From Candidatus Woesearchaeota archaeon (lineage in GTDB: Archaea; Nanobdellota; Nanobdellia; Woesearchaeales; JAZDKJ01), in NCBI GenBank assembly GCA_043803105.1, contig JAZDKJ010000006.1, positions 364,222 through 428,221 on the forward strand: a stretch of DNA of 64,000 bases, in the 5' to 3' direction. This document shows, piece by piece, positions 6,918 to 56,893 of this stretch (its first letter is position 1; every line of letters begins with the position of its first letter). The translations under genes and the position numbers were made by a program. The notes beneath the pieces are model-generated. The model saw only the letters and a program-made list of their open reading frames with translations, searched no databases and was not told the DNA's origin.

Positions 6918-7044
6918 TGGGCCGGACGAGATTTTCTTTGTTTTTTTTTCCAAGTTGCATTCGAACTCGCGACCACCTGATTGCTTTGCAGCTTAAAAGT
7001 CAGGTGCTCTATTGCCCTTATACTCCAGGCTGAGCTACCGGCCC
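6918..7044 (-). tRNA. tRNA-Lys(UUU), apparently with three introns (D-loop, canonical 37/38, T-loop)
   Basis: Minus strand GGGCCGG-TA-GCTC-AGCCTGG[+14 nt]AGAGC-A-CCTGA-CTTTTA[12-nt intron]A-TCAGG-TGGTC-GCGAG-TTCGAAT[28-nt insertion]CTCGT-CCGGCCC-A. The acceptor, D, anticodon and T stems all pair perfectly or with a single GU. Confidence 0.6.
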
Positions 7045-7059
7045 ATCGTGATTGAAAAA

Positions 7060-7225
7060 CGCCCTGGTCGGGACTTCCAACAACAGACATGCCGTATGAC
7101 ATTTTCAGCTGATTTGAACCCGAGTCGAAGCCTTTTTGCGGTAGCAAACAGTAATTCAACCCTCCCTCTGGTTGAAAAGCCACCTCGACAGGGCTTCATG
7201 ATAGGCCAGACTACACTACCAGGGC
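7060..7225 (-). tRNA. tRNA-Asp(GUC), with a canonical intron (~52 nt) and a T-loop intron (~39 nt)
   Basis: GCCCTGG-TA-GTGT-AGTCTGGCCTATCAT-GAAGCC-CTGTCG[intron]A-GGCTTC-GAC-TCGGG-TTCAAAT[39 nt]CCCGA-CCAGGGC-G. The D-arm resembles archaeal tRNA-Asp/Glu. Confidence 0.6.
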
Positions 7226-7432
7226 TTTGACCTAGTTAAGCCTAATTTAAGCTTTCTAGCCACCAAGCAGTCCACATAGGTCTTCTTAAGCGCATAGAAA
7301 GATTGAATTGGCATGGCCCACCTATCTTCACACCTGTTTATAAAGCTTGTGGTTTTTTCCTGACTTATTCAGGTCTGCTTGAACTTTTGCTTGATTACTT
7401 TCAAATGTTCTGCTCGAATTAAAGCGAGAATA

Positions 7433-7559
7433 TCCCCGAGGCCGGAGTCGAACCAGCAACCTTTCGGTAACGGCTGAGTGTTTTTCACATTCTGCACTGA
7501 GTGCAATATCAAAACACTATCCCTACAGCCGAACGCTCTAGCCATTGAGCTACTCGGGG
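7433..7559 (-). tRNA. tRNA-Tyr(GUA), with a 54-nt canonical intron
   Basis: CCCCGAG-TA-GCTC-AATGGCTA-GAGC-G-TTCGG-CTGTAG[54-nt intron]A-CCGAA-AGGTT-GCTGG-TTCGACT-CCGGC-CTCGGGG-A. The T-arm is nearly identical to that of M. jannaschii tRNA-Tyr. Confidence 0.7.
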
Positions 7560-7563
7560 AAGC

Positions 7564-7777: not shown

Positions 7778-8137
7778 TTAGTGTACAATTCTCATTTTTC
7801 CAGCCATGACTAAATTGTGCTCAATCTCTAGCTTGTTGAATCTTTTTTCCATCGCTAGGATCTTATCGACTTTTTGCTCTGTTTGCTCTACACCGTTCTT
7901 TATCTTACCTAATTTGTATGCTCCCCCGAGAATCGAAATGCCTCCTCCAAGATATGGTATCATCTCTACCCACACTGGAGAGCGCACAATTCCAAAAACC
8001 TTAAGCAGCGCCCACAGGAGTATTGCCAGTGCTCCTATGACAATCAGGGAATCCCAGAGGTCAAAACTTGCGTTGAAGAGTTTTTTTAGCTTTTGAATTG
8101 TCCTCATGCTGGCAGCAATAATAAAAAGGTCGTTCAT
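7778..8137 (-). CDS. small membrane protein (2 TM, coiled-coil C-terminus), hypothetical
   Basis: 119-aa ORF with a hydrophobic segment (LIVIGALAILLWALLKVFGIV), last gene of the surface-protein operon. Confidence 0.5.
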   Translation of the reverse strand: MNDLFIIAASMRTIQKLKKLFNASFDLWDSLIVIGALAILLWALLKVFGIVRSPVWVEMIPYLGGGISILGGAYKLGKIKNGVEQTEQKVDKILAMEKRFNKLEIEHNLVMAGKMRIVH

Positions 8138-8204
8138 AAACTTTTGTCTTCGATAAATCCAGATTGTATGAATGAGCCGTAAATCTTCCGAAAGTCACAA
8201 CATC

Positions 8205-10154
8205 TTATTTCTGCGGTTCGCTCGATGTCCAGTCCTGCTTGCACATGTTGTCGATTGCAGAGTATGCAAAGCTGCCCAGAGTATAGTCGAGAAGTTTCCA
8301 TGTCAAATCTCCTGCCAGGGCCTTGTTTGCCTGCTGTTGGGCTTCCCTCTCTGCTATTGCTTTTTGCTCGGCAGGGTCATTGTATGCTCCTGCAGTCTTC
8401 GCACTCAACACACTGGCGTATACTATTCCATCCGTACCGAGCACTGTTTTTTCCCCACTTAGTGCTATCCTTTCAGACCTGATTGGCCCACCCTCATCAA
8501 ATGTGTACTCTGTAACCATGGCCCCTGCTTGTGCAATATAGGTGCTTGATATTGCTCGTGTTGGAGGTGGAAAACTTTGTGGTGTACACACAGTGGGAGG
8601 AAATCCCTGCTTGACATATGCACCGTAAGGATACTCACTGTTAGGTTCTTGGTATTGGTAGTCCTGTTGTGCAAAATAGACTTGGGTGAGTGTAGGATCC
8701 TGCGCAGCTTGGCTGGCGCTTATGTCTATGATATTTATATCCGGATATATTGTGCTTTTCCAGCAGTTGCAGTTTGTATTGAAATGGTAAGAACCTTCTG
8801 ATGCTATGCTTGATATCTTCCCGTTATACCCGTTTTGGGTTAGGTCAGTTTGGAGTGTAAGATAGCTCATCCCTGATTTTAGGAGAGGGGTGTTGCCCCC
8901 AGCCACAATATAGTAACTGTATTTACCTTCCTTGTCAGTTGCAGATTGGCTATCAATTTTGCTTATTATTATCTGCCCCTTGTTCCCGTCAAAAACAACC
9001 CCTGCCTTCACATCATCAACCGTAACTGAAGGTTTGACTACCTGTCCGTTCTTCGCTACCCCATCATACATTTTGTCTCCATTCTTGTCAACCAATCTGT
9101 AATTATAGGGCACGGGTCTTCCAGACAACCTGTTCTTTATGTCCTCAAAGTGCAGGTCAGTGCATGTTGGTTCATTAAAGCTCGTTGACATCCAGTTCCA
9201 TGACTCTGTTACCTGTGATATCATTCCAGGAATGTTGGTGAGCTCCATCAATTTCAATACGCATTTTGGTATGGCTGCCTGCTTGATGATTTCTCCCAGC
9301 TGGCTTGCAAGGTATTTTGCCAGGATTGACATAAGTATCTTAGCCACAGTCTTTAGTATAGAACCTTTCCAGTACATGCACAGCGCTTCATCTAGTTGTT
9401 TCTCGCATGCCTCTGTTGATATTCCTGCGGTGCACGCCTGTTCGATGCAGCAATTATACACCTGGTAGATTGTCTTGAGCTTTCTTATGTTAAATAGTAT
9501 TGCAACTGGGCACAGGCAGTAAGTTGCAGTGTAGATGTTCTCATAAGGATTCAGGTGGAAATCTCCGATAGCCAGGTTTCCGTACCCTCCGCCTGTTGTT
9601 GTCTTTCCAACTCCAACCGTGTTGCTCAGGCTTTCAGAGTTCTGTCCTAGCACCGGCACGTTCTTCACTATTCCTCCGCATCCAAACTTTCCTGTGCACC
9701 AGCCGCAGCTTACAAGACAGCACAATCCCTGCACTACCGGCAATTTGTACACGCTAGACCATGCCTTAAACACTTTTTGCATTGCTATGCAAAGTTTGGT
9801 GCCAGTGAGTAGTCCAAGCAGGCAGCAGTCCCCTGCCTCGTCTCCTGAGAACCCTATTAAGCTTGATATTGCCGATAGCACGATGTCTATGGCGCTCATT
9901 ACAGTGCATATCATGAGCATTATTGACGCTACGCTCTCAAGCGTTCCTATTACTCCATTGTCAAGCGAGTCAGCTATGCCTGAGCTTTTCTTGTGCTTCT
10001 CAATGCACTGCTGTCCAGCCTCAAGGTCTGTTGTGCCAGTTTCCTCTGTTGCCTTACCAGTAACTGGATTTACCTCTGCAAATGCGATTGAAGTGCAAAA
10101 TGGGATGCTGATTATGAGAAAGATTAGGATTTTGGCTACTTGCTGTTTTATCAT
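8205..10154 (-). CDS. secreted cysteine-rich large protein (signal peptide plus one TM), hypothetical
   Basis: 649 aa. N-terminus MIKQQVAKILIFLIISIPFCTSIAFAEV is a signal peptide. Many Cys, CC and CxC motifs. Starts 2 nt after the upstream gene's stop. Confidence 0.6.
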   Translation of the reverse strand: MIKQQVAKILIFLIISIPFCTSIAFAEVNPVTGKATEETGTTDLEAGQQCIEKHKKSSGIADSLDNGVIGTLESVASIMLMICTVMSAIDIVLSAISSLIGFSGDEAGDCCLLGLLTGTKLCIAMQKVFKAWSSVYKLPVVQGLCCLVSCGWCTGKFGCGGIVKNVPVLGQNSESLSNTVGVGKTTTGGGYGNLAIGDFHLNPYENIYTATYCLCPVAILFNIRKLKTIYQVYNCCIEQACTAGISTEACEKQLDEALCMYWKGSILKTVAKILMSILAKYLASQLGEIIKQAAIPKCVLKLMELTNIPGMISQVTESWNWMSTSFNEPTCTDLHFEDIKNRLSGRPVPYNYRLVDKNGDKMYDGVAKNGQVVKPSVTVDDVKAGVVFDGNKGQIIISKIDSQSATDKEGKYSYYIVAGGNTPLLKSGMSYLTLQTDLTQNGYNGKISSIASEGSYHFNTNCNCWKSTIYPDINIIDISASQAAQDPTLTQVYFAQQDYQYQEPNSEYPYGAYVKQGFPPTVCTPQSFPPPTRAISSTYIAQAGAMVTEYTFDEGGPIRSERIALSGEKTVLGTDGIVYASVLSAKTAGAYNDPAEQKAIAEREAQQQANKALAGDLTWKLLDYTLGSFAYSAIDNMCKQDWTSSEPQK

Positions 10155-10156
10155 TT

Positions 10157-12328
10157 CTAACTTACCTCTGGCGCAACAAACTGTGAATAATCGTTAACTG
10201 TGTAATCTACCTGTTTTGTCTTGCCGTCGCAGTTATCATCGACAGTGATCTTTCCGCTTAGCCTGCTGCCATCAATGACTGTCTCAGTGATGCTGTTTAC
10301 CTCAAGGTTCTGGTCTGAGAGGAAATCCACCATGCAGTAGAATTTTATTTTGCTGCCCCTTAGGCTGGTTGCTTTCCATCCAAAGTTCCCGTTGCCAATT
10401 ATCCAAGGTCCTTCGTAGTTGGAATGCGTCAAGGGATTGTTGTCAAAGTCCACTGTCACTGTGTTGTCTCCTTCTTTATAGGTTGAGGGCTTTATGACCA
10501 CGTTGCCTTTGGCCAGCATTCCCACCCGATAGTTTCCGCTTCCTATTATCATGCTCTTCATTGTTGGGTATAGGACAGTAGGGTTTGCAGACGCCCCGTT
10601 TATTGATATTGTTATCTCGTCTTTTGGCCTTGGCTGGTAGCGTGTTTCCTGCAACATTTCTTCAGGTGTTTTTCCGCAGCTGCTTCGTAAATATCCATTT
10701 GTCAGATAATAGTTCTCCAGGAATTTTCTTGCAAGCACAAGCTCCACTTCAATGCTGTAATTCTTCAGTTTCTCCAGTTTGTATTCGCTTTTTACAGCAT
10801 CAACAATCGTGCTGTAACCTGCCTTCTGCAACTTAAGCTGGAGCCCTGCGCATTTCGGCAGCTTTAAGGAGGCTCTGCCGCTGGAGGCTGTCTCTCCTGC
10901 ATCGCATTCGTTGATTGTGTTGTTGCATTGGAATCTGACACCAACTCCAGGCAATAATCCTGTTTCATTCGTTGTGACTACACTAGCCTGCGTGCTTACG
11001 TTGTTGCAGTCAAAGACACTTTTCATGGTCTCGCTTCCGAAAAATGCTGTCAGGTTCACTTCGCTATATGGATTCTGTCCAGTGCACTGCCTGTTCTGGT
11101 TTCCGCACAGGAAGAGTTGCATCGGGAAATAAAACGAGAAGCCCTGTTTTTCCTGCACCAAATTACCAATAATCTTGGCAGAATCGCTGTCTGTGATTTT
11201 TATCACCACAGGATGTGTCAAGAAGTACTTGAACCTGTAATCATAAATGCAGAAGCTTGGGAGGAATGGTATGCTTGTCTGCGATTCCTTGTCCGGGCTA
11301 ATCACGTTGCCGCTTGTGGGTTTGATGTCAAATTTGTTATCTGATTGTGCAGGGTAACTGAATTCTACGCTTATTGAGCTAAGATTTTCGAAATAATTCC
11401 TGATAAAGCTGTCATAAACTCCCTGGACTGAAGCGTCGTTTGAAATCACTCTTTCAAACTTTGTTCCGGCCATCTTTAGGTATGGAAAATTTTTTGAAAG
11501 TATGCCTTCAAGATTTTCCTTGACTTCATCTTTCGTCCATGTTACGTATTTGCAATCTGTGCTTGAGTCAGAGAAGCTGAACGGCGGAAGGTCTTTTGCT
11601 CCCTTTTCTGCCCCGGTATAGCTGTACAGAGAAATCAGTGACTTTGCGTGGTCTTCAAGATAAGTGTCTGCAAACTCTCTTGTGACTAATTCCATAGCTA
11701 TCTCATGGATCAGCGCCAGGTTTACATCCACCTGATAATTGTAGTTGTCCACTTCATACTGTTTTTCGTTCTGTGTGATCTGGATTGGCCAGTGAAGATC
11801 AATTGTTGCCTGTTTGCCGAACCTCACTGTGGTGTTTATTGTTCCAGTCTTGATAACATAACTTTTTTTTCTGAAGACCTCAAAGTCCGTGCATCTCGGC
11901 AGGTTTTCTGTGATGTATCTAGCTAGCTCATTTTGCATGTAATCTGTTGAAGGTACAGAAATCGAATCTTCGGTGATCCAGTAAGGGACCTTGTTCTTTC
12001 CTGTGGCGTCAATAACCTGAATCATGCTCCCAGTTTTAACCACAGTCCTATCGCCGCTTATGCCTGTTGTTTGTAGCTCGGTAGGAATGTATATGAACCC
12101 CGCCTGAAGCCCAAGGATTTCTATTCCTGAATTTGCATAATCACTTAGACACTGTTCCACATATGTCTTAACCTGTTGAGCAGGCTCTGCAAGTTGTAAT
12201 GCCCTTACCTGTTCGACCTGGATTGGCTGCTCTGTTGTTCTTGCCCAGCTAAAGTAGAAGATTGCCGCAGCTATCAGCATGATTATTCCGATGATTATGA
12301 ATATGGTTATCTGTCCTCTTTTTTCCAT
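10157..12328 (-). CDS. large class-III signal peptide (archaeal type IV pilin-like) surface protein
   Basis: N-terminus MEKRGQITIFIIIGIIMLIAAAIFYF has a short basic n-region and an R-G|Q site followed by a hydrophobic helix, as in PibD/FlaK substrates. 723 aa. Confidence 0.5.
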   Translation of the reverse strand: MEKRGQITIFIIIGIIMLIAAAIFYFSWARTTEQPIQVEQVRALQLAEPAQQVKTYVEQCLSDYANSGIEILGLQAGFIYIPTELQTTGISGDRTVVKTGSMIQVIDATGKNKVPYWITEDSISVPSTDYMQNELARYITENLPRCTDFEVFRKKSYVIKTGTINTTVRFGKQATIDLHWPIQITQNEKQYEVDNYNYQVDVNLALIHEIAMELVTREFADTYLEDHAKSLISLYSYTGAEKGAKDLPPFSFSDSSTDCKYVTWTKDEVKENLEGILSKNFPYLKMAGTKFERVISNDASVQGVYDSFIRNYFENLSSISVEFSYPAQSDNKFDIKPTSGNVISPDKESQTSIPFLPSFCIYDYRFKYFLTHPVVIKITDSDSAKIIGNLVQEKQGFSFYFPMQLFLCGNQNRQCTGQNPYSEVNLTAFFGSETMKSVFDCNNVSTQASVVTTNETGLLPGVGVRFQCNNTINECDAGETASSGRASLKLPKCAGLQLKLQKAGYSTIVDAVKSEYKLEKLKNYSIEVELVLARKFLENYYLTNGYLRSSCGKTPEEMLQETRYQPRPKDEITISINGASANPTVLYPTMKSMIIGSGNYRVGMLAKGNVVIKPSTYKEGDNTVTVDFDNNPLTHSNYEGPWIIGNGNFGWKATSLRGSKIKFYCMVDFLSDQNLEVNSITETVIDGSRLSGKITVDDNCDGKTKQVDYTVNDYSQFVAPEVS

Positions 12329-13050
12329 ATGAACCTCTCTGTGTAATGAGCATAATAGTTTCGTGCCCAGCTGATTAGTGGCAGTGCTATCATAACCATC
12401 ACTAACAGCTTGAAGAACTGGTCTAATCTAGGGAGCACAAGAAATCGCAATATCACAACCATGAATCCTATCACCGCGTAGGGAACCACAAATTTATGGA
12501 ACCTGCATCCAGTCCAGAAAAGCGCCTTGATGGATTTTTTTATGCTCCGCGTTCTGGCATAAGAGAAAAGTATAATGGTGTTGAAGTGCAATGTAGCCAT
12601 CCCAATGATGACAAACAGGACATTATTATTCAGTTTGATTATTGAAAACAAGGCAATTACGATTGCGACACATAACAGGCCATAGTTGAGCAACGCCATT
12701 TGCCAGAAGTCTTTCAAGGAAAATCTCGTGCCAACCAGCCTGCTCCATATAATCCCTTTGAAGAGGCTAAACTCCGCTATTGCTGCCACAAAGAACAATC
12801 CTATCAAAATGAACAGCGTCGAAAGAAAACCTGCCAGCATATGTAACTGTTCCTGCGCATGGGCTGGGTCAATTGCTGCATTTAGGTTTACCGGCGTGGT
12901 TGCCCTGACTGTCAATGCCCACACAAGAAAGGTGCAGAATAGCGTAGCATAGAAAAGCAGGTCATAGCCATAGGCCACTAGAATCTTCTTGACTTCAAGA
13001 CTTTGCAGAAGAACCTTAAGTTCCTGCTTAAAATACCCTCTTTCAGTCAC
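12307..13050 (-). CDS. polytopic membrane protein, hypothetical
   Basis: 247 aa with about six TM segments. First gene of the operon, overlapping the next ORF by 22 nt. Confidence 0.5.
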   Translation of the reverse strand: MTERGYFKQELKVLLQSLEVKKILVAYGYDLLFYATLFCTFLVWALTVRATTPVNLNAAIDPAHAQEQLHMLAGFLSTLFILIGLFFVAAIAEFSLFKGIIWSRLVGTRFSLKDFWQMALLNYGLLCVAIVIALFSIIKLNNNVLFVIIGMATLHFNTIILFSYARTRSIKKSIKALFWTGCRFHKFVVPYAVIGFMVVILRFLVLPRLDQFFKLLVMVMIALPLISWARNYYAHYTERFIWKKEDR

Positions 13051-13076
13051 AGATCTTTCTCAGACTGCAGCCCTAT

Positions 13077-13784
13077 TTATATCTTTTTATGGATGTCCTT
13101 TACCTTGCCGAAATCCAATATTTCTCCATCAGAGACCACATAGGCCTCAAAGTCCCGGATTTTATTGTATGGTCCTAACAAATCATCGCTTGTGATGTCA
13201 GTTCCGTAGCTGGCTGAGCTGAATGATGGCATCACTATCAAGTCTGCCTTGCCATATTTTCCCTTCAGAAAACACTTGTAAGTCTCTGCCCTGGCCCCTT
13301 CCCTGATGGTTATTGCAGGATGCATATGCCCGATTATTATTGTCTTTGCTTTCTTTGGAATCTTCTGCTCGACATGCCCATGCATGAGAAAGACATCATC
13401 TATCATTATGTTGTCCACTATCCGTACATTCTTTTTCTTTGCTATTGGTTCGAGTATGATGTCATGGTTGCCCTTGATTAGCGTGACTTTTGCTGACTTG
13501 CTTAAAAGATCAAGCACCTTCATTGTCTCTCTCCATTCCTGGCTAGACACCTCTCCAAATTCGTGCTTGACGTCGCCATTTATGATGATATGTTCTGGTT
13601 TTGTTTTTGCCATTATCTTTTCGAGTTGTTTCAATAATTCGCGGAGCTGAAACCTAGGTATGAAGAAGCCCTGCTTGTTCAATGCCTCCTCAAAGCCAAT
13701 GTGCAGGTCAGAAATGACCAGTGTCTTACATTTCTTAAGGTGCAAGGCAAGGTCGATTATCTCGATTCCAGGATGTATTTCCAT
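13077..13784 (-). CDS. metallophosphoesterase (calcineurin-like phosphoesterase family)
   Basis: Motifs DLHIG, GDVKHEF, GNHD and GHMH. Confidence 0.75.
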   Translation of the reverse strand: MEIHPGIEIIDLALHLKKCKTLVISDLHIGFEEALNKQGFFIPRFQLRELLKQLEKIMAKTKPEHIIINGDVKHEFGEVSSQEWRETMKVLDLLSKSAKVTLIKGNHDIILEPIAKKKNVRIVDNIMIDDVFLMHGHVEQKIPKKAKTIIIGHMHPAITIREGARAETYKCFLKGKYGKADLIVMPSFSSASYGTDITSDDLLGPYNKIRDFEAYVVSDGEILDFGKVKDIHKKI

Positions 13785-46206: not shown

Positions 46207-47511
46207 ATGAAAGTCCTTATTGTAGGTTCAGGAGGTCGGGAGCATGCTCTGGCCTGGAAAATAGCCAAAAGTCCGCTGGTTTCTAAGGTATATTGTGCTC
46301 CAGGTAATGACGGAATTTTGCAGACGCCAAAGGCAGATTGTTTCTCAGAAATCAAGGCAACAGATATTGAAGGCCTTGTTTCCCTGGCGAAAAAGAAAGG
46401 TGTTGATTTCACTCTTTTTGGTCCTGAAGATTCTTTGGTCAACGGCGCCTATGACAGGTTCAGGAAAGAAGGCCGTCTTGCTTTAGGCCCTGATAGCTGG
46501 GGAGCTGATATTGAAGGCAGCAAAGCCTGGACAAAGGACTTGATGCAAAACTATGGTATACCTACTGCCTTTGGCCAGTCAACCTCAAGGATTTCACAAG
46601 CTAAGGATATTGCCAAGGAATTTGTGCAGCATTATGGTGGTGTAGTTGTCAAGGCAGATGGGCCTTGTGGCGGAAAGGGAGTTTTTGTATGCAGAACCTT
46701 GCTTGAAGCCATTTTAGCCATAGACCGGATTATGGTCAAGCGAGTCTTTGGCCCTGCTGGAAAGCGAGTTGTCTTGGAAGAACTGCTTGTTGGCGAGGAA
46801 GCATCATTCATGGCATTGGTAAACAGCGTCGAAGATTATATCTTGCCTTTTGCTTCATCGCAAGACCATAAGAGGCGTGATGATGGAGATAAAGGCCCAA
46901 TGACCGGCGGCATGGGTGCTTATTCGCCTGCGCCTGTAGTAACACCTGTAATTCATAAAATGATAATGAAAGACACCTTGTACCAGACTATGCGCGCTAT
47001 GGCTCAGGAAGGCAGGCCTTATGTTGGGGTCATGTATGCTGGCCTAATGATAGTTAAAGGAAAACCAAAGGTGCTGGAATTCAACTGCCGCTTCGGAGAC
47101 CCAGAGATCCAGCCAATACTAATGAGGATGAAACCTGACATTATGCCTTTGCTCATTGGCTGTGCAGAAGGCAACCTCAGAAAACAGACGGTTGAATGGT
47201 ACGACGACGCTGCGGTCTGCGTAGTTATGGCCTCAAAAGGTTATCCTGAATCAGAGCAATTGAGAGGCCAGCAGATTCACGGCCTTGAGGATGTTACACA
47301 CATGGAAAATGTCTATGCCTTCCATGCAGGCACTGCTTACAAGAATGGTGTTTGGACTAATAAGGGTGGCCGTGTCTTAGGTGTAACTGGCAGAGCGCCC
47401 ACCATAAAGGAGGCACAAGACCTTGCCTATGAAGCAGCCAAAATGATTACATTCAATGGTGCTCATTATCGCACTGACATAGGCAATAAAGCAATCCAGA
47501 AAACAGTCTAG
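46207..47511 (+). CDS. purD: phosphoribosylamine--glycine ligase
   Basis: MKVLIVGSGGREHALAWK and an ATP-grasp fold. Confidence 0.9.
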   Translation: MKVLIVGSGGREHALAWKIAKSPLVSKVYCAPGNDGILQTPKADCFSEIKATDIEGLVSLAKKKGVDFTLFGPEDSLVNGAYDRFRKEGRLALGPDSWGADIEGSKAWTKDLMQNYGIPTAFGQSTSRISQAKDIAKEFVQHYGGVVVKADGPCGGKGVFVCRTLLEAILAIDRIMVKRVFGPAGKRVVLEELLVGEEASFMALVNSVEDYILPFASSQDHKRRDDGDKGPMTGGMGAYSPAPVVTPVIHKMIMKDTLYQTMRAMAQEGRPYVGVMYAGLMIVKGKPKVLEFNCRFGDPEIQPILMRMKPDIMPLLIGCAEGNLRKQTVEWYDDAAVCVVMASKGYPESEQLRGQQIHGLEDVTHMENVYAFHAGTAYKNGVWTNKGGRVLGVTGRAPTIKEAQDLAYEAAKMITFNGAHYRTDIGNKAIQKTV

Positions 47512-47550
47512 TATTGCGAATAACAGAAAAGCAAGTTAGAGGTATCTCAA

Positions 47551-48504
47551 GTGTCTGATAAACTGTTGCTGATTGGTATGGGTTCGCCTAGTGATTTGAA
47601 GCATTTTGAAAAGCCTTATGCAAGCCTTGACGGCACCATCCCGGAATATCTCTTAAAAAAGGGTGTGAGACTATATTTGAGCCCTGGCACAGGAAAGCCT
47701 CTTGTTACCTCAATACATCGCACCACTGATACAGCAATGAAATTTGCAGATTCTCTTGATAGCTTGGTTGCTATAGAAGGAAGAAATGACAGGTTTGTTG
47801 CCTTATTGTTTGGCGGGCTTGCTTTTCATCTTGGTGGGGCTTTTGCTGGAAAGAATCCTGCAATACCGACGATTGTAGCTGCGATGGATGAGCATGCCTT
47901 CATGAGCGCCTATGCTATGCCTAAAGGAACTCCGGTTGGATTGGTTGGAGTCAACCAGCTTGACAAGGCTGTGATGATGGCAACTAAGATTCTTGACTAT
48001 AACGATTCTAACCGAGCATGGATCATACACCATCATTTCACCAATCCTCCATCGACTGATAGGGAGCATCTCGTAAAGTCTTCATATGATGCTGCCACTC
48101 AGCTTCTGCAAAAGTGCAATGTTTTGTCTTGGGCAGTTGAATTTATTTTTGTCGCGCAGAAGAAATATAAAGGTGTTTCATTAAGCCTGCCAGCGCTGCC
48201 ACAAACCGCAATAGAAATGGACAAGAGGTTAATTTTGGGTTCTGTTTCGTTTGTCAATCCTGCTGCGTTAAGTCCTTGCACCACAGGTCAGTATCAGACC
48301 CTCATGGATGTTGCTGGTCAGCTCAAGAACTCTTTGCTGGTCCATGACCCTTACAACGCAGCCCTTTTTACAATCCAGGTTATCGCAAACAAGTATCCAG
48401 ACTTACGTCTTGGGCTTGACAGGATAAAGGAAGAATCGAGGCTGCCGACTGCGAAGGGTGGGTATTCTCAGTTTTTGCCAATAAAAAAGGATGATTTCAA
48501 GTGA
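47551..48504 (+). CDS. PurE-like (AIR carboxylase family) protein with a C-terminal extension of about 150 aa
   Basis: LLIGMGSPSDL, SIHRT, FGGLAFHLGG...IPTIV resemble the PurE motifs GSxSD, HRTP, AGGAAHLPG. 317 aa against about 160 for canonical PurE. Confidence 0.45.
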   Translation: MSDKLLLIGMGSPSDLKHFEKPYASLDGTIPEYLLKKGVRLYLSPGTGKPLVTSIHRTTDTAMKFADSLDSLVAIEGRNDRFVALLFGGLAFHLGGAFAGKNPAIPTIVAAMDEHAFMSAYAMPKGTPVGLVGVNQLDKAVMMATKILDYNDSNRAWIIHHHFTNPPSTDREHLVKSSYDAATQLLQKCNVLSWAVEFIFVAQKKYKGVSLSLPALPQTAIEMDKRLILGSVSFVNPAALSPCTTGQYQTLMDVAGQLKNSLLVHDPYNAALFTIQVIANKYPDLRLGLDRIKEESRLPTAKGGYSQFLPIKKDDFK

Positions 48505-48515
48505 GGTGAAATAAC

Positions 48516-49796
48516 GTGGGCAGTACAAAAGATTTGGTTACTACAGGAAAGCTTGGTGAGCAATGGTATGCGCCTCCAACCGCTGTCAAGTTTGGTTATG
48601 GACCAATGCAGGTAAAAGGAACCTTCTCTGTGGCAGACTTAAAGAAGCTTATTCCTGAGTCTATCATAAAAAACAAGGCAGAAGCCCTTGCCATGCAGCA
48701 GGCAGCATTTGCAGAGTATCTGCAATATAATCACCCTGAGATCCCAAATTCCTATTATGGTATATTGGACAAAGATTTCAAACGTACTGACGTTCAGCAC
48801 TTGTTGTCTAAGGGAGAAACATCGAGCATCGTAGTCATGAAGCTTGCCCACACGCCAGATAGCTTTTGCGAAGGTAACCTTGATAAATATCGGGCTGCCC
48901 TGCAATCAGGAGAATTACAGTGCGGCGTTGCAGACGTGGAGTCAATCTTCAGGCTGGGCTTTCCGCTCGGCAGCTCGACTTTCGAGGATATTTTCAAGGC
49001 TGTCAGGTTAGGAGAAAAGTACGAGCATTTAGCCACTTACAATGAGACTGCGGCCGAACTCGACAAAATCAGGGCTATGGTTTCCGAGCAAGGTCTTGAC
49101 ATCTTCGAAGGTTTGGAGGAATTGCTTCAAAAAAAAGGCCTGGGCACCACTATTCCGAATCCAGGATTTGTCCTCAAGCATTTTGTTTATGATACAACCA
49201 CAAAATTCGTGAGTTACGGCGACCTTAAGATATCTGAGGAAGATGCTGAGAAACTTAGCGGCCTAAGCCATGAGAGTTATCAGCTCTGGAAGAATGACAT
49301 GTTCCCGAAGATTGCTGCTGCGCAGATAAAATTTTGCATGGAAAGGAACATATTCAATATTGATGGCAAGAGTGAAATCGTGGCATACCATCGCATGCCA
49401 GTTGTTGCCGACTTCCAATGCACTGTTGACGAAAACAGGGAAATGATAGTTGTGGCGGTTGACGGGGTTGAATGGCTGATTCCCAGCAATAAGGAAATAC
49501 AGCGGGCGATTTTCAGAAAAGAGGGAGTTTATGCAGCAAAGGCTGAGGCTTTAAGGCGGTCAGTAAAAGACAAAGGAGTCTTTGACCATTGGAAGGAGTA
49601 TTTTCCGGCTGTCATCAAGGAGCGAAAGATTGATTTGGTGGGTGTTACAGAATTCTCGTGTGATTTGATGGCAAATGCAATCATGGAAGTTGCCAACCGG
49701 ACTCTCGGCCATAGGGTGTTTGATGCAAAGCCGCTTGACTCGTGGGTTAGAGACTTTGTTCCTTATGCTAGTAAGTTACAAAGGCAAGGTGATTAA
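48516..49796 (+). CDS. hypothetical protein in the purine cluster (possibly a divergent SAICAR synthetase/PurC-like fold)
   Basis: 426 aa with weak resemblance to PurC segments. Confidence 0.3.
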   Translation: MGSTKDLVTTGKLGEQWYAPPTAVKFGYGPMQVKGTFSVADLKKLIPESIIKNKAEALAMQQAAFAEYLQYNHPEIPNSYYGILDKDFKRTDVQHLLSKGETSSIVVMKLAHTPDSFCEGNLDKYRAALQSGELQCGVADVESIFRLGFPLGSSTFEDIFKAVRLGEKYEHLATYNETAAELDKIRAMVSEQGLDIFEGLEELLQKKGLGTTIPNPGFVLKHFVYDTTTKFVSYGDLKISEEDAEKLSGLSHESYQLWKNDMFPKIAAAQIKFCMERNIFNIDGKSEIVAYHRMPVVADFQCTVDENREMIVVAVDGVEWLIPSNKEIQRAIFRKEGVYAAKAEALRRSVKDKGVFDHWKEYFPAVIKERKIDLVGVTEFSCDLMANAIMEVANRTLGHRVFDAKPLDSWVRDFVPYASKLQRQGD

Positions 49797-49798
49797 GA

Positions 49799-51751
49799 AT
49801 GGGGCATGTTTTGTTCGGTCGTTATCCAAGCAAGGAGATGAAGGAAATCATCGGTCCTCAACCCAAGGATTACAGGACGCTTTGCTCTCCTGATATGGAA
49901 AATATTTTCTCCAAGGAGTCAAAACATAATGGTTGGGATGACGTTTGGTATGCCCATATGAAAGCACAAAAAGAAACAGGCCTGCCAATACCGCAGGAGC
50001 ATTTGGATGCCTTCCAAGTTATTCTACACAAGATTAATTATCAACGCATGGATGAGATTGAACGAATCCTGAAGCATGATGTTGATTCTGGCAGGAAGCA
50101 TCGTGCTGAAGAATTGGAGAAGGTGTTGGAAGGCTCTTCCGCATGGCTGCATGCTGGTGCAACTAGCTGCACGGTCACAGATAATCAGGAGCTTACTGCA
50201 ATGTATAACGGCTTGCAGCTCTTGGCAGACAAAGGATACAATCTCCTTAACAAGCTTGAGCGTTTTGATTCTGGTCTGATTGTTAACCAGCACAAGTCAG
50301 ATCTAGAATATGCCTTGAATATATTAGACAGCAGGATCAACAACTTCAAGATAAGAGGTGCAAAAGGCACCACAGGCACCCAGGCAAGCTATCTCGAGCT
50401 GTTTGATGGCAATGCAGAAAAGGTCAGCGCTTTCGAACAAGCCTTCATCCAAAGACTTGGGTTTGGTAGGGCATTCACGATAACCGGTCAGACCTATCCA
50501 CGGATTGCGGATTACCAGCTCGTATCAACCTTGGGCGTGCTTGCGACTGCGCTTTCAAACATTGCAGAGTACTCAGTCAGCTTTTCCGAAGAATTAGCTC
50601 ATCCTTTGTCTGATGTGAAGAGCTTTGCAAAAAGCGCTGCGCACATGGCATCCAAGCAGTGGTTGGAGCGAACACTAGATGACTCTGCCCAGAGACGGAT
50701 TATCATCGAAGATTCCTTCAAGGCAGTTGAGTATGTTCTGGATAGGCTGAACTCTGCAGAAATTAACCCGATAGAGATAAGGGACCCTGACTTTCAGCTA
50801 AGCCAGCCATTGTCAGAAACGCTTGAAGGCACTACAGGCAAGGCTCTTGAGCTGTTGCGTGACAAGACTGTGAATACAATTTTCAGAATTCACACATTTG
50901 CAGAGAAGTTCAAGGACCAGCCTTGCATGGCATACACTCATTATCAGGTTGCCCAGCCTACAACTGTAGGCAAGCGGCTTGACCTTTGGGCCTATAATTA
51001 TGTTTTGGCACTTCAGGACATTGAAGACTTTTTGGAGTCTGACAAGAACCTTGAAGTAAGCCAGAATATTGTTGAATATCGCATCGCCACACTGTTAACA
51101 CAGATTGCGGTTGCTGCCCATAAGCAAGCCGCAGATGTCAGGTTGTGCCAGCATGACGGGATAATGACTGAGCCTTTTGCAATTGGCCAAAAAGGTTCAA
51201 GTGCTATGCCTCATAAGCGCAATCCTATGAAGAATGAGCGCATCTGTTCTCTATCTACAGAGTTGATTCAGTATGCTGATTCCAATAATGCCAACCCTTA
51301 TAGCTTTTTGCTAGCTGACTCAGTCTTGAATCTTGCAATGGCTGTTTTTGTTGAGGATACTCCTAAACAAAAGGGCTTTACTGTTAACCCAGAGGTTATT
51401 GCAAAGAATTTCAGGGAATTTCTGCCATATATCTGCCTAGAGCAACTGGTTAACAAAGTGCTCAAGACAGGAAAATACAAGCGCGAGGAGCTGTATGACA
51501 TCGCTTACAATTGCTCAATACAGGCCCGAACCAATGTCGAGGTACACGGCAAGGCAAACAACACGCTTGAATTAGTGTGCGAATACCCTCAATTTGGGCT
51601 CACTCCAGAAATGATTCCTGCGATGCTTGATCCTATGCTCTATATCGGTCTAGCGTCAAAACAGGTAGAATTGTTTGGAAGGGTGCATGTGGACCCCTTG
51701 AAAGAGAAGTACAAATCTGTTCAGGCGTTAGAGTCTGACGTGAAAGTTTAA
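49799..51751 (+). CDS. purB: adenylosuccinate lyase, unusually long (650 aa)
   Basis: Fumarate-lyase signature GSSAMPHKRNP. The N-terminus resembles PurB. Extra length implies insertions. Confidence 0.8.
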   Translation: MGHVLFGRYPSKEMKEIIGPQPKDYRTLCSPDMENIFSKESKHNGWDDVWYAHMKAQKETGLPIPQEHLDAFQVILHKINYQRMDEIERILKHDVDSGRKHRAEELEKVLEGSSAWLHAGATSCTVTDNQELTAMYNGLQLLADKGYNLLNKLERFDSGLIVNQHKSDLEYALNILDSRINNFKIRGAKGTTGTQASYLELFDGNAEKVSAFEQAFIQRLGFGRAFTITGQTYPRIADYQLVSTLGVLATALSNIAEYSVSFSEELAHPLSDVKSFAKSAAHMASKQWLERTLDDSAQRRIIIEDSFKAVEYVLDRLNSAEINPIEIRDPDFQLSQPLSETLEGTTGKALELLRDKTVNTIFRIHTFAEKFKDQPCMAYTHYQVAQPTTVGKRLDLWAYNYVLALQDIEDFLESDKNLEVSQNIVEYRIATLLTQIAVAAHKQAADVRLCQHDGIMTEPFAIGQKGSSAMPHKRNPMKNERICSLSTELIQYADSNNANPYSFLLADSVLNLAMAVFVEDTPKQKGFTVNPEVIAKNFREFLPYICLEQLVNKVLKTGKYKREELYDIAYNCSIQARTNVEVHGKANNTLELVCEYPQFGLTPEMIPAMLDPMLYIGLASKQVELFGRVHVDPLKEKYKSVQALESDVKV

Positions 51752-53220
51752 TGCGACCACTAAAAAACGAGCCTTCAAGGAGCTTGAAGGAGTACAGGCT
51801 TCTTACAGGCAGGACTACTGCTAAGACTGTTATGTCTTCTGTCAATCTCAGGACAAGACTCTGCACGAGTCCTAATGGCAAGGACTTTCTCTATCTGAAC
51901 ATTCCATTGATGAGCGCAGCAATGCAGGCTGTTTCAGGAACAAGGTTATCTGTTGCGCTTGCACAGTTTGGAGGCATTTCTGTTTTGCCGTGCTCTATTC
52001 CGGTTCAGGAGCAGGTTGCAATAATCAAGGAAGTGAAGCGCTTCAAGGCAGGCTTCCAGGAGGATGTGACAACCTTTTCCAAGGATGACCTGATTGCCGA
52101 TGCTGTTAAGGTAATGAGTACAAAAGGCTATCACACTTTTCCCATAACAGAAAATGGGAGATCGCACGGGAGGCTCCTTGGCATATTATCAGACAGGAAT
52201 TTTGACCCCAAAGAGCACGTAAAGAATAAGATCGAGAAACACATGGTGAAGAATGTTGTGACAGCAAGGGAGGGCATTTCATTGCCTGATGCAAACAAGG
52301 TGATGATAAAATACGGCAGGAGCATACTACCTATTGTTGACTCAAGGAAAAACCTACGATACGTTGTCTTCAAGAAAGACCTGGAAAAGCACAGGAACTT
52401 TCCTGATGAGCTCGTCGACCATAACAAGCGCTATATGATCGCTGCAGCAGTCTCGACCTTGCCTAGTGACCACTCAAGGATTGATGCCCTGATTAAGGCA
52501 GGAGTTGATGCCTTGATCATTGATTCCTCCGATGGTTTTTCTGATTTCCAAATTGAGACCTTGAGCTATATCCGTAATAAAACAAGGAAGATTCCGGTGA
52601 TTGGGGGAAATATAATCACTAAAGAAGGCTTTTTTCACTTGGCTGAAGCTGGTTTTGATGCAGTTAAGGTCGGAATGGGAATTGGTTCTGGCTGCACGAC
52701 ACAAGAGCAGAAAGGTGTTGGTCGAGGCCAGGCTTCTGCCTTGATTGATGTCTGCGCTGCTCGCGACGAGTTTTATTCAAACACCAACAGATATCTTCCA
52801 ATAATTTCTGATGGCAGCATTTCAAATCCTGGCCAGATTGTAATTGCCTTGGCTCTAGGCGCAGATTCTGTCATGATGGGTCGGTTCTTTGCCCAATTCT
52901 CCGAGTCTGAAGGCGGTGTGAGGAATCATCCTCAATACGGTCCATTGAAAGAATTCTGGATGGAAGCCTCTGCCAGGGCGAGGAGTTATGGCCGCTATGA
53001 AACCAAGCCAGAATTCTTTTTTGAGGAAGGTGTCGAAGGCTATGTTCCGCACATTGGATCAATCTATGATAATCTCGGCCAGACTTTGATCAAGATAAAG
53101 TCTGCCTTGTCCAATGCTGGCTGCAAGAATATAGATGAATTGCACAAGACTGCAGTGCTTGAATTGCAATCAATAGCATCATTGCAGGATGCTGCAGTGC
53201 ATGATATTATAACTAAGTGA
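51751..53220 (+). CDS. guaB: IMP dehydrogenase (CBS-domain containing)
   Basis: LNIPLMSAAMQAVSG, a CBS pair, and the catalytic loop GMGIGSGCTTQE. Confidence 0.8.
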   Translation: MRPLKNEPSRSLKEYRLLTGRTTAKTVMSSVNLRTRLCTSPNGKDFLYLNIPLMSAAMQAVSGTRLSVALAQFGGISVLPCSIPVQEQVAIIKEVKRFKAGFQEDVTTFSKDDLIADAVKVMSTKGYHTFPITENGRSHGRLLGILSDRNFDPKEHVKNKIEKHMVKNVVTAREGISLPDANKVMIKYGRSILPIVDSRKNLRYVVFKKDLEKHRNFPDELVDHNKRYMIAAAVSTLPSDHSRIDALIKAGVDALIIDSSDGFSDFQIETLSYIRNKTRKIPVIGGNIITKEGFFHLAEAGFDAVKVGMGIGSGCTTQEQKGVGRGQASALIDVCAARDEFYSNTNRYLPIISDGSISNPGQIVIALALGADSVMMGRFFAQFSESEGGVRNHPQYGPLKEFWMEASARARSYGRYETKPEFFFEEGVEGYVPHIGSIYDNLGQTLIKIKSALSNAGCKNIDELHKTAVLELQSIASLQDAAVHDIITK

Positions 53221-53230
53221 GGTGTCATAA

Positions 53231-54643
53231 ATGGGTTTTTCAGAATTGGTGTCAGGTAAGCAGACAATTGCTATTGTTTGCAATCAATGGGGTGATTCAG
53301 GCAAGGGAAAGTTTGTCCACTTGTTTAGCGAGTGGGCTGACATTATCGCACGTGGTACTGGAGGTCCGAATGCAGGTCATACTGTTGTAATAAACGACAA
53401 GACATACATCTTCCACACGATCCCTTCTGGAATTTTGTATGACTGCGCTGGAAAGACTAATGTGATGGGACCTGGAATGGTTATTGATTTGAAAGGCCTT
53501 GGTGAAGAGTTGGACACGCTTGACAAAGAGCGTGCCTCATATAATCACTTGGTTATCAGCAATGCAGCAAATGTGATTTTGCCCCAGCACAAGATTCGAG
53601 ATGGTGCTGCTTTCGCATCCATGGCCAAAGGGTCTGTTGGTTCAACCGGCCGAGGCATCGGCCCTTGCTATGCTGATGCGACTGCCAGAACAGGAATTAC
53701 CTTAGCAGATCTGTTTGACAAAGATATATTGGCAAAGAAATTGAGGGAAAACCTCAAGAACTATCCTGATTTGGTTGACAAGCTAGACGTGGACGAGATT
53801 ATTGAAGAGCAGCTCAAACATTTTGAAAGAATAAGACCTTTTGTCCGCGAAACGCATTATCTTATGAACGAGTCCCTTGCTGCAGGAAAGAAGATCCTCC
53901 TGGAAGGTGCACAGGGATTATTGCTGAGCATAATGTTTGGTACCACACGATATCAGACCAGCTCTGATTGCTCTATTATCGGAACAGCTCAAGGTGTAGG
54001 CCTGAATCCAGCAGTCGTTGACTTAACTCTTGGGATAGTCAAGGCACCTTATATGACTCGTGTTGGCAACGGCCCATTCCCTACTGAGTTTGGAGGAGTA
54101 CTGGCTGAAGAGTATTGTGCAGATGTGAGCCACAACAAGAAGGTTGAACTGGCAAATTACAATCTTGAAGCGCTTCTACGCTCTCCACGCGAGTTCGACC
54201 AGGGGTTATATGCGAGAATTAAAGGAAATGAGTATGGGGCCACCACTGGCCGTCCAAGGAGAACCGGATGGATTGACTTGGTTGCCCTTCGCTATGCTGC
54301 CATGATTAACAAGAGCGCAAAGGCGAAAAGGGCTGATGTTATCATAACAAAGCCCGATGTGATGGATGAGTTTGACAAGATAAAATTATGTGTTGGCTAC
54401 ACCCTTGGGGGTGTGATCACCACCAGGTTCCCGCACCGTTCTGAACTGCTTGAACAATGTGCACCTATTTACGTAACCATGGACGGGTGGAAGACCCCAA
54501 TAAGCGACTTCAGGGATTACAATGAAATAAAGAGGAAAGCGCCAAACCTTGCCAACATTCTGTTCTTCATTGAAGAATATGCTGGTGTTAATATCAGGAG
54601 CGTATCTGTTGGCGCTGATAATGACCAAACAATCTTTAGGTGA
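53231..54643 (+). CDS. purA: adenylosuccinate synthetase
   Basis: QWGDSGKGK and GGPNAGHTV motifs. Confidence 0.9.
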   Translation: MGFSELVSGKQTIAIVCNQWGDSGKGKFVHLFSEWADIIARGTGGPNAGHTVVINDKTYIFHTIPSGILYDCAGKTNVMGPGMVIDLKGLGEELDTLDKERASYNHLVISNAANVILPQHKIRDGAAFASMAKGSVGSTGRGIGPCYADATARTGITLADLFDKDILAKKLRENLKNYPDLVDKLDVDEIIEEQLKHFERIRPFVRETHYLMNESLAAGKKILLEGAQGLLLSIMFGTTRYQTSSDCSIIGTAQGVGLNPAVVDLTLGIVKAPYMTRVGNGPFPTEFGGVLAEEYCADVSHNKKVELANYNLEALLRSPREFDQGLYARIKGNEYGATTGRPRRTGWIDLVALRYAAMINKSAKAKRADVIITKPDVMDEFDKIKLCVGYTLGGVITTRFPHRSELLEQCAPIYVTMDGWKTPISDFRDYNEIKRKAPNLANILFFIEEYAGVNIRSVSVGADNDQTIFR

Positions 54644-54652
54644 GGTGTAAAA

Positions 54653-55426: not shown

Positions 55427-55427
55427 G

Positions 55428-56891: not shown

Positions 56892-56893
56892 GA

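Follow-up and report, generated by a model that had tools for sequence, protein, structure and literature searches.

Within the window, the 64,000-nucleotide stretch of DNA analysed here, two adjacent genes of a Candidatus Woesearchaeota MAG form an obligate pair which, judged from sequence, most likely serves for attachment at the cell surface. One encodes a 723-aa surface protein bearing the signature of a class III signal peptide (V1837_04030, positions 10157..12328, minus strand), and the other a 649-aa Sec-secreted, Cys-rich partner (V1837_04025, 8205..10154, minus strand). We regard it as an evenly balanced proposition that the two make up a new surface complex, specific to Woesearchaeales/Nanoarchaeota, that displays a variable adhesin; cleavage, complex formation, display and adhesion are the parts of this proposal that we infer.

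A conserved two-gene core

The initial annotation had placed the pair in a four-gene surface operon. All four open reading frames do lie on the minus strand at the coordinates given for them, and they are as tightly packed as was described, the 22-nt junction between the 247-aa and 723-aa genes being an overlap and the 2-nt junction between the 723-aa and 649-aa genes a gap. Three of the four (723, 649 and 247 aa) are genuine and conserved, P0001, P0025 and P0049 being the NCBI proteins V1837_04030, V1837_04025 and V1837_04035. The operon in its four-gene form did not survive comparison with related loci: the conserved core consists of two obligate genes, to which a six-TM gene is optionally added.

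In all 31 cases that could be assessed, the 723-family gene lies directly upstream of the Cys-rich partner gene on the same strand, and the two usually overlap or lie a few nucleotides apart. Across the related loci fetched, which belong to a small set of tiny archaea that are probably symbionts, the pair is always kept, the 247-aa gene is an accessory and the 119-aa reading frame is missing. The loci come from Woesearchaeota/Nanoarchaeota genomes throughout, as do all source-named members among the 24 homologs of the 723-aa protein; a pattern-limited scan of 185,579 GTDB species genomes, queried with the alignment of the partner (649-aa) family, returned 21 loci with the family. Those 723-family proteins that are paired with ~1050-aa 'C-terminal module' partners form a clade of their own, and both types of pair occur in tandem in seven fetched loci, each from a different MAG. 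Where a second copy of the pair is present, the small ORFs immediately upstream of it encode ribbon-helix-helix-like proteins, not pilins. Fusions of the two proteins, sought as Rosetta-stone evidence of interaction, were absent from 156 partner-family proteins. A physical interaction between the 723-aa and 649-aa proteins is suggested by their obligate synteny (31/31) and by the co-diversification of cognate partners, and these are the two grounds on which we propose a complex.

The optional gene (V1837_04035, 12307..13050, minus strand, GTG start) encodes a 247-aa membrane protein with about six TM segments by hydropathy. Members of its family flank the pair in around a dozen loci, some lying upstream of the 723-family gene and others downstream of the partner, and jackhmmer recovered the family in L001, L002, L007 (three copies), L008, L011, L012, L014, L022, L027, L028 and L029. 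Conservation is confined to an Asp in TM1, a Phe and an 'IW' after TM2; the protein has no Pfam or NCBIfam match, and a search of 5.8 billion proteins returned only 2 matches. We considered and rejected two identities for it. As a CPBP (CAAX/Abi) protease it should carry the EExxxR, FxxxH and HxxxN/D motifs, which are not conserved: the look-alikes 'AEFSLFKG' and 'LHFN' are unconserved in a 14-sequence alignment, and there is no PF02517 match at E<=1. Nor is it a cryptic prepilin peptidase, since no catalytic motif is conserved.

The fourth reading frame (7778..8137, minus strand) encodes 119 aa with one hydrophobic segment and lies 67 nt downstream of the 649-aa gene. None of the fetched related loci has a homolog, not even L001, the closest relative, in which the matching space is occupied by a tRNA only, and the exact sequence is absent from the protein collection searched. 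Because of the gap, the lack of homologs and the absence from the collection, it is unsupported as a member of the operon, and it is possibly lineage-specific or spurious. The downstream edge of the locus is marked by a tRNA-Tyr(GTA) gene with a 54-nt intron (7432..7560, minus strand; Rfam tRNA 54.6 bits, ARAGORN intron mode), which is kept in L001, as are the syntenic chromosomal housekeeping neighbours. An origin in a virus or mobile element was rejected, there being no PHROG match below E 0.1 and no IMG/VR relative. Searches of Pfam, NCBIfam and PHROGs gave nothing meaningful for any of the four proteins, and no family in these or in the PDB (searched with single sequences and profiles) matched the 723-aa or the 649-aa protein.

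The 723-aa protein and its prepilin-type N-terminus

The 723-aa protein begins MEKRGQITIFIIIG, and its sole hydrophobic segment spans residues 7-25 (Kyte-Doolittle 2.88). Residues 1-33 (12230..12328, minus strand) comprise the leader MEKRG, a predicted cleavage site before Gln6 and the hydrophobic helix QITIFIIIGIIMLIAAAIFYF. A prepilin-type N-terminus had been proposed at the outset, and the family bears this out: all 32 intact N-termini carry K/R/H, then G/A/S, then Q and a hydrophobic stretch. Position -2 is K or R in 31 of the 32 and H in one, position -1 is A, G or S in every one, and the +1 Gln (the Gln6 column) is invariant both in the alignment (24/24) and among the intact N-termini (32/32). 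The leaders themselves vary from ~3 to 30 aa, and the motif QITIFIIIGI is conserved in the family. At +5, Phe stands in at least 26 of the 32 N-termini, and Glu, the residue of EppA substrates, in none of them; +5 Glu is typical of EppA-type and bacterial pilins and absent in Sulfolobus and Haloferax pilins. EppA substrates in Methanococcus have a leader ending in Gly and a +1 Gln (PMC3875500), and the match of our family to this description supports a class III signal peptide. We therefore see a strong case, in a signature that is family-wide and tightly constrained, for a class III (prepilin-type) signal peptide. The curated N-terminal models (Pfam Class_IIIsignal, archaeal Pilin_N and N_methyl, and their NCBIfam equivalents) matched neither the 723-aa protein nor 24 family members, and eight isolated N-termini searched at E<=10 gave just sub-threshold matches to DUF7287, DUF7286 and Tad.

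An AF2 model of the protein (mean pLDDT 83.8) has a helix at residues 3-33, followed by a linker (33-44) with pLDDT <50. Beyond this flexible linker, the ectodomain is predicted to have four parts, namely two α/β domains lacking structural relatives, one β-sandwich of transthyretin/CnaB-like type and, at the C-terminus, a further region rich in β-structure. The sandwich (residues ~440-520; 10769..11011, minus strand) has seven strands in about 75-80 residues and can be superposed on known transthyretin-like, CarboxypepD_reg and CnaB members; the β-sandwich domains are similar to domains found in adhesins, in Gram-positive pilins and in SlaB. No type IV pilin fold is apparent in the predicted structure of the remainder of the protein. 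Its N-glycosylation sequons number seven, as composition predicts.

The initial annotation had noted the absence of a pilus ATPase or platform gene, and for the ATPase this holds over a wider range of loci. About 35 window ORFs searched with Pfam included neither a T4P ATPase nor a platform protein nor an A24 peptidase, the 64-kb window, one part of a 542-kb contig, has no A24 homolog, and the ORFs of 31 loci, with flanks of up to ±10 kb, lack the pilus ATPase-like Walker A motif G.[TS]GSGK[ST]T, a regular expression that is a crude test for an assembly ATPase. A prepilin peptidase gene lies near the pair in one locus only, that of the distant relative L005, where Peptidase_A24 is encoded two genes upstream.

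Several known systems share parts of this design. The EppA/PibD-processed class III proteins of M. maripaludis (EpdA-C, MMP1685 and the larger MMP0600/0601/0709) likewise have a basic leader ending in a small residue, a +1 Gln and a helix next to it, and their genes lie away from the assembly ATPase and platform. However, the 723-aa protein has Phe rather than Glu at +5, has no DUF361/Class_IIIsignal match, carries a four-part ectodomain apparently unrelated to pilin heads on a chain of 723 aa, and is always accompanied by the gene of a Sec-secreted Cys-rich partner. Its size, thought unusual for a class III protein, is not so, since bindosome binding proteins and large adhesins of TFF loci are known (10.64898/2026.04.22.720090). 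The Sulfolobus bindosome also tethers a large globular extracellular protein by a prepilin-type N-terminus, with the peptidase encoded elsewhere (10.64898/2026.04.22.720090), but the 723-aa locus lacks a substrate-binding-protein fold, ABC transporter genes and detected Bas-type assembly genes, and what defines its family is the obligate partner gene beside it. Modular pilins and tip adhesins (S. sanguinis PilB; PilY1/PilC) are comparable in that a pilin-type N-terminus bears a large module and a non-pilin partner might give adhesion; in our pair, by contrast, no complete pilin module (α1 plus β-sheet), vWA or β-propeller was detected, and the Walker A expression revealed no T4P-locus linkage across the 31 loci. 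To Gram-positive sortase pilins and MSCRAMMs (BcpA, SpaA, CnaB) and to CarboxypepD_reg the likeness is at the level of fold only, at 8-23% identity, and the 723-aa protein, which is archaeal, has no LPXTG or sortase signal and would use another anchoring chemistry.

Architecture of the Cys-rich partner

The 649-aa protein has the classical, Sec-type signal peptide (…SIAFA before the cut, EV after it) and the clustered cysteines that were first noted for it, with 24 Cys in all, including CC at 110-111, 145-146 and 235-236, CxC at 213/215 and 462/464 and CxxxC at 146/150. It contains no N-glycosylation sequons, against 4.3±1.9 expected. At E<=1e-3 its family numbers 382 cluster representatives, which are ~340 to 1816 aa long, and the L005 partner exceeds 3559 aa.

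Three parts can be distinguished. The N-module (residues 45-345; 9120..10022, minus strand) is a disulfide-rich helical unit of ~300 aa with the core motif NIYxAxxCxCPxAILFNLRKLKxIYQxYxCCIExAC…C…C, 20 invariant columns among 24 sequences and 15 Cys columns conserved at >=70% among 101. It is followed by a hypervariable insert (346-584; 8403..9119, minus strand), poorly alignable and ranging in length across the family from 54 to 1028 aa (median 281), for which AF2 gives pLDDT <50. The C-module (585-649; 8208..8402, minus strand) has one conserved Cys and a conserved alignment block, AxxxxWxLLxxxLGxxAYxxIDxMCxxxW. Against the closest ortholog, the N-module is 65% and the C-module 57% identical and the insert only 29.5%, so the insert is diverging much faster; we presume it to be the displayed or ligand-binding part. 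In the split partners of L003, L010, L018, L023, L026 and L031, the C-module is encoded by a separate downstream gene, and the fact that the two modules share a chain in some genomes and come from neighbouring genes in others argues that they act together. Their conserved cysteines, 15 in the N-module and one in the C-module, add up to an even number, which fits extracellular disulfides.

The AF2 model of the partner is poor (pLDDT 52.4), with an all-helical N-terminal part, and a model of this quality gave no meaningful fold matches; for these reasons the term 'docking module' is a guess. A TM segment had also been ascribed to this protein. Residues 68-100 do form a strongly hydrophobic helix of 34 residues here (Kyte-Doolittle 2.3), but the same segment averaged over 101 family members is only borderline (mean 1.3-1.6), and the helix may lie buried in the protein core instead of crossing a membrane. 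A second hydrophobic helix, residues 264-291, lies within the otherwise amphipathic helical bundle of the N-module, and both helices could instead be membrane-embedded. Some partners carry carbohydrate-active domains (GH5), and that of L005 has weak matches to OmpA and to NAGPA and polysaccharide deacetylase; six long family members have no Pfam domains.

A proposed surface attachment device and its alternatives

These features can be combined into a scheme in which the 723-aa and 649-aa proteins would be co-translated as the obligate core of a complex. A PibD/EppA-type A24 peptidase encoded elsewhere would remove MEKRG and expose Gln6, leaving the N-terminal hydrophobic helix to anchor the 723-aa protein in the cytoplasmic membrane, in the way of the binding proteins with class III signals in the Sulfolobus bindosome, with the four-part ectodomain carried on the flexible linker. 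The partner would be exported by Sec, its N- and C-modules folding together and docking onto the 723-aa stalk, so that the hypervariable insert might face outward and bind the envelope of a host cell or a polysaccharide. The six-TM 247-aa protein would be an optional membrane accessory, and the 119-aa ORF would stand outside the system. Of the earlier suggestion of a module for adhesion or cell contact, a surface or adhesive role is the part that fits, given the conserved Cys pairs, the adhesin-like β-sandwiches, the hypervariable insert and the occasional carbohydrate-active domains; its function we can only infer.

Another way to view the pair is as a complex that primes a type IV filament or forms its tip. 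The 723-aa protein would be a modular minor pilin, built through its N-terminal helix into a pilus whose ATPase and platform are encoded far away, and the partner would be a non-pilin tip adhesin, on the model of PilY1/PilC with minor pilins or of the modular pilin PilB of S. sanguinis. The class III signature speaks as much for this as for the surface complex, Methanococcus and Haloferax have their pilin genes scattered at a distance from those of the ATPase and platform (PMC3875500), there are modular pilins onto which large domains have been grafted (PMC8179133), some DPANN TFF loci encode large adhesins (10.64898/2026.04.22.720090), and Peptidase_A24 lies two genes away in one related locus; we nevertheless think it unlikely. 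If the N-terminus were instead an uncleaved signal anchor, the pair might build an envelope layer of stalk and canopy like SlaB/SlaA, with no adhesin. This seems to us decidedly unlikely, as a simple anchor would not be expected to keep an invariant Gln right after a small residue behind very variable leaders, and a partner that ranges from ~340 to >3500 aa and is split or duplicated in many genomes is atypical of a lattice protein. Moreover, the family was found in just 21 loci among 185,579 GTDB species genomes (in the pattern-limited scan), and the likeness to SlaB extends to generic β-sandwich domains only, its architecture of Sec signal, β-sandwich domains, coiled coil, C-terminal TM anchor and large SlaA partner differing from that of the pair.

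The hydrophobic helices at 68-100 and 264-291 of the amphipathic bundle, and the confinement of the family to a lineage generally regarded as symbiotic, allow for a membrane-active contact apparatus in which the Cys-rich module forms a pore or bridge in the host's or its own membrane, the 723-aa protein acts as spacer or stalk, and metabolites or cytoplasm are exchanged in episymbiosis. Such an apparatus is very improbable: in the structural comparison no likeness to a pore former or fusogen rose above noise, refolding of the kind required of pore formers would be impeded by eight putative disulfides, and the hydrophobicity is just borderline across the partner family. No protein is known to account for DPANN-host bridges. 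It is conceivable, and quite improbable, that the processed stalk and the disulfide-locked module, with its two hydrophobic helices and recognition insert, engage or insert into the envelope of a partner cell, as a host-recognition determinant and possibly a means of membrane bridging in DPANN episymbiosis. Least probable of all we consider a cellulosome-like scaffold for extracellular polysaccharide-degrading or -binding domains, serving nutrition and not cell-cell contact, because in most inserts, including that of the window and those of six long members, an enzymatic or CBM domain cannot be recognised.

Among the lineage-specific families, many are located in the membrane or outside the cell and have unknown functions (Castelle et al. 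2021). Woesearchaeales and their relatives are abundant, uncultivated and generally regarded as dependent on other cells, and the literature found identifies no protein through which they make contact with a partner. A strictly syntenic, lineage-restricted pair that combines a processing signature with a hypervariable segment is a candidate for the recognition of a host or substrate. The pair would add a new kind of client to the processing of archaeal class III signal peptides, and the Cys-rich module, for which there are 382 cluster representatives, is suitable for registration as a new domain family. If the pair does act at membrane contacts, it would be a previously unrecognised contact apparatus of Woesearchaeales.

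A conserved gene pair and its surroundings

On the minus strand of the window, the gene for a 723-aa protein with a putative class III signal peptide (10157-12328; V1837_04030) is followed by that for a 649-aa Cys-rich secreted protein, its partner (8205-10154; V1837_04025). As the initial annotation reported, 2 nt separate the two ORFs, and a 247-aa ORF with a GTG start (12307-13050, minus strand; V1837_04035) overlaps the 723-aa ORF by 22 nt. All three tagged genes lie on a 542,637-bp contig of a Candidatus Woesearchaeota MAG, among whose proteins are MFH0978441-2. A 119-aa ORF (7778-8137, minus strand) begins 67 nt beyond the partner. Read from the sequence, a TATA-like A/T-rich element, AAAAGATATAAATA (13074-13087), lies 24-37 nt 5' of the GTG start and may be a promoter. 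An SbcD-like phosphoesterase gene (TIGR00024 match) lies upstream of the locus, with rpoH and split rpoB genes downstream. Rfam and the intron mode of ARAGORN identified a tRNA-Tyr(GTA) gene with a 54-nt intron (7432-7560, minus strand), which default ARAGORN settings missed and which is kept in the same place in L001, the closest related locus.

We obtained contexts from look-ups of individual homologs and from a scan with the partner alignment, using one genome per GTDB species (21 loci from the scan), and searched all ORFs of the loci with HMMs. A 723-family gene lies directly upstream, on the same strand, of every partner gene whose upstream region was present (31/31), with junctions that usually overlap or leave a few nt. 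Two pairs stand in tandem in seven loci, each from a different MAG (L003, L009, L018, L022, L027, L029 and L031). In a quick distance (neighbour-joining) tree, the 723-family proteins paired with partners of ~1050 aa, whose Cys module lies near the C-terminus, form a clade of their own, from which it follows that the pairs diversified as cognate units. The pair is a lineage-restricted, strictly syntenic unit whose two families have co-diversified. About a dozen loci have a member of the 247-aa family adjoining the pair, on one side or the other; this family shows no conserved catalytic motif. The 119-aa ORF has no homolog in any fetched locus, L001 included. No relatives were found on IMG/VR viral contigs.

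Several further features of these regions are recorded here. Between tRNA-Tyr and rpoH, the window (6950-7440, minus strand) and L001 (12555-13150) share near-identical blocks; the insertions that interrupt them are different in each. These blocks resemble pieces of tRNA (for example GGGCCGGTAGCTCAGCCTGG … AATAGAGCACCTGACTTTTAA … AATCAGGTGGTCGCGAGTTCGAAT) and may be additional tRNA genes whose introns lie at non-canonical positions; Rfam and ARAGORN detected no tRNA over them. In L003 (10651-10821) and L009 (11994-12167), the second (type 2) copy of the pair has immediately upstream of it a 56-57-aa ORF whose product looks like a ribbon-helix-helix protein (RITLSNEINDLL…KKSMLARELMEQKM) and may be a dedicated regulator. 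Pairs with a split partner are followed by a convergent, conserved gene for about 380-400 aa (L003 9228-10376, L009 10417-11610 and L010 9092-10297, all minus strand); its product combines a cytoplasmic part at the N-terminus, a single TM segment and an extracellular region that closes with repeated helical motifs containing Cys (…RDLCF…KDxCY…), and may be a further component in this subgroup. In L002 (4641-8591, minus strand) a gene for the large subunit of ribonucleotide reductase, with an intein and a LAGLIDADG endonuclease, adjoins the pair. Elsewhere in the window, a long purine nucleotide synthesis operon (46207-58884, plus strand) encodes GARS (purD), AIR carboxylase, an adenylosuccinate-lyase-like 650-aa protein, IMP dehydrogenase, adenylosuccinate synthetase, archaeal IMP cyclohydrolase, two AICARFT/IMPCHase-like proteins and AIR synthase. 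It merits mention because nucleotide biosynthesis is usually described as absent from DPANN archaea.

N-terminal signal and fold of the 723-aa protein

Pfam, NCBIfam and PHROGs gave no match above noise for any of the four proteins, and PDB sequences none for the 723-aa and 649-aa proteins, whether searched as single sequences or as family profiles. By hydropathy, the 247-aa protein has about six TM segments (3 Cys), the 723-aa protein a single hydrophobic segment at residues 7-25 (13 Cys), the partner a signal peptide and one hydrophobic segment at 68-100 (24 Cys), and the 119-aa product one hydrophobic segment and no Cys.

The 723-aa protein has 24 homologs at 21-50% identity, and all those with a source name come from Woesearchaeota or Nanoarchaeota. 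Their alignment shows the motif [K/R][G/A/S]-Q-[ILV]-[TS]-[ILV]-F-I-I-I-G, in which Gln6 is invariant behind a leader of about 3 to 30 residues. The motif is present in all 32 intact N-termini of the fetched loci, with K/R at position −2 in 31 of them, A, G or S at −1, and mostly Phe at +5. Substrates of Methanococcus EppA have leaders of 5-13 residues ending in Gly, with Gln at +1 and Glu at +5 (PMC3875500); the 723-family shares the features of the leader end and the +1 Gln, but not the +5 Glu. In sequence, these N-termini have the form of a class III signal peptide. A Gln at a fixed position behind leaders so unequal in length is not expected of a plain signal anchor.

The AlphaFold2 model of the 723-aa protein is good (mean pLDDT 83.8). 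It predicts a helix (residues 3-33), a linker with pLDDT <50 (33-44) that is variable in the alignment too, an α/β domain (about 48-235), another of α/β-plus-sheet type (about 236-410) and, beyond a loop of low confidence, a β-sandwich (about 440-520) and a C-terminal β-rich region ending in a conserved P-[EK]-F, with P720 invariant. The Foldseek matches to pilins and adhesins of Gram-positive bacteria (BcpA, E 2.7e-4) are weak and of tandem-β-sandwich type, and a type IV pilin head domain is absent from both lists of reported fold matches. The initial description of the protein as pilin-like therefore depends on its N-terminal signal. That such a signal is unusual on so large a protein was overstated, since large class III signal proteins and TFF-associated adhesins are known from archaea (10.64898/2026.04.22.720090). 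Two cysteines, C60 and C146, never vary in the alignment, and two more, C441 and C475, are almost invariant, a pattern that fits an extracellular location.

Modular architecture of the Cys-rich partner

A search with the 649-aa protein found 24 homologs, and in most of them conservation is limited to the first ~54% of the query. The alignment opens with a Sec signal peptide, which a variable linker joins to the N-module (residues 45-345 here); this spans about 300 residues and has 20 invariant columns, many of them Cys. After it come an unalignable middle (the insert, 346-584) and a conserved C-terminal block, AxxxxWxLLxxxLGxxAYxxIDxMCxxxW (the C-module, 585-649). An exhaustive profile search gave 382 cluster representatives at E<=1e-3 (122 at 1e-30), with lengths of about 340 to 1816 aa. 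Among 156 sequences, 81 have the N-module only, 51 both modules and 24 the C-module only; the intervening insert spans 54-1028 aa (median 281). Several genomes divide the partner between two neighbouring genes: the N-module is on one, the insert and C-module are on the other. Identity to the closest ortholog is 65% in the N-module and 57% in the C-module, and 29.5% in the insert. The second protein is Sec-exported and built as a constant module, a hypervariable insert and a constant module.

Fifteen Cys columns of the N-module are conserved at >=70% (101 sequences), with one more in the C-module, an even total compatible with eight disulfides, one of which would join the two modules. The segment at 68-100, annotated initially as a TM segment, is indeed strongly hydrophobic in the window protein, but the family mean (Kyte-Doolittle) is only 1.3-1.6, so the segment is only a candidate membrane span. 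Its predicted structure is not reliable. Six long family members contain no Pfam domain; in one member a GH5 cellulase match is weak (E 0.0033) and falls short of the curated cut-off. Two distant loci have a gene for a giant protein downstream of the 723-family gene, of 1775 aa in L007 and >3559 aa in L005; both proteins resemble the core Cys motif only weakly, at an internal position, and that of L005 matches NAGPA and polysaccharide deacetylase, with a weak OmpA match. N-x-S/T sequons number zero in the secreted 649-aa protein, against 4.3±1.9 expected from composition, and seven in the 723-aa protein, as expected.

Proposed surface display and its alternatives

The pair lacks linkage to pilus assembly genes. 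About 35 ORFs scanned in the window include no T4P gene, bearing out the initial annotation, and no A24 homolog; a regular expression for the T2SSE-type Walker A motif, a crude ATPase detector, matched no ORF of the 31 loci, and an A24 peptidase gene lies nearby only in L005/L006. An A24 peptidase encoded elsewhere would cleave the 723-aa protein, which its N-terminal helix would keep tethered; the partner's constant modules would dock on it, leaving the insert as a binding surface.

We favour such a membrane-tethered display complex over a complex at the tip of a pilus. Archaeal pilin genes are often scattered (PMC3875500), as a pilus-tip role would allow, but the assembly genes are consistently unlinked to the pair, and what comes after the helix is a disordered linker, not a pilin head. 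An S-layer-like, a membrane-active bridging or a polysaccharide-scaffold role of the pair would be weaker alternatives. The display complex would resemble the bindosome in its use of a class III signal (10.64898/2026.04.22.720090).

No curated family covers the pair or the Cys-rich module, and the literature searched yielded no description of either. In a survey of DPANN proteins, many Woesearchaeota- and Pacearchaeota-specific families are located outside the cell or in the membrane, with functions that are not known (Castelle et al. 2021). We rate the pair as belonging to a known kind, surface proteins that carry a class III signal, to which it adds an obligate partner family. The loci from the scan come from Woesearchaeota, Nanoarchaeota or Nanoarchaeia MAGs, barring three 'binchicken' TPA bins titled 'uncultured Methanosarcinales archaeon' (L015, L016 and L023). 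We suspect a labelling or binning issue; if these titles are real, the family of the pair extends beyond DPANN.
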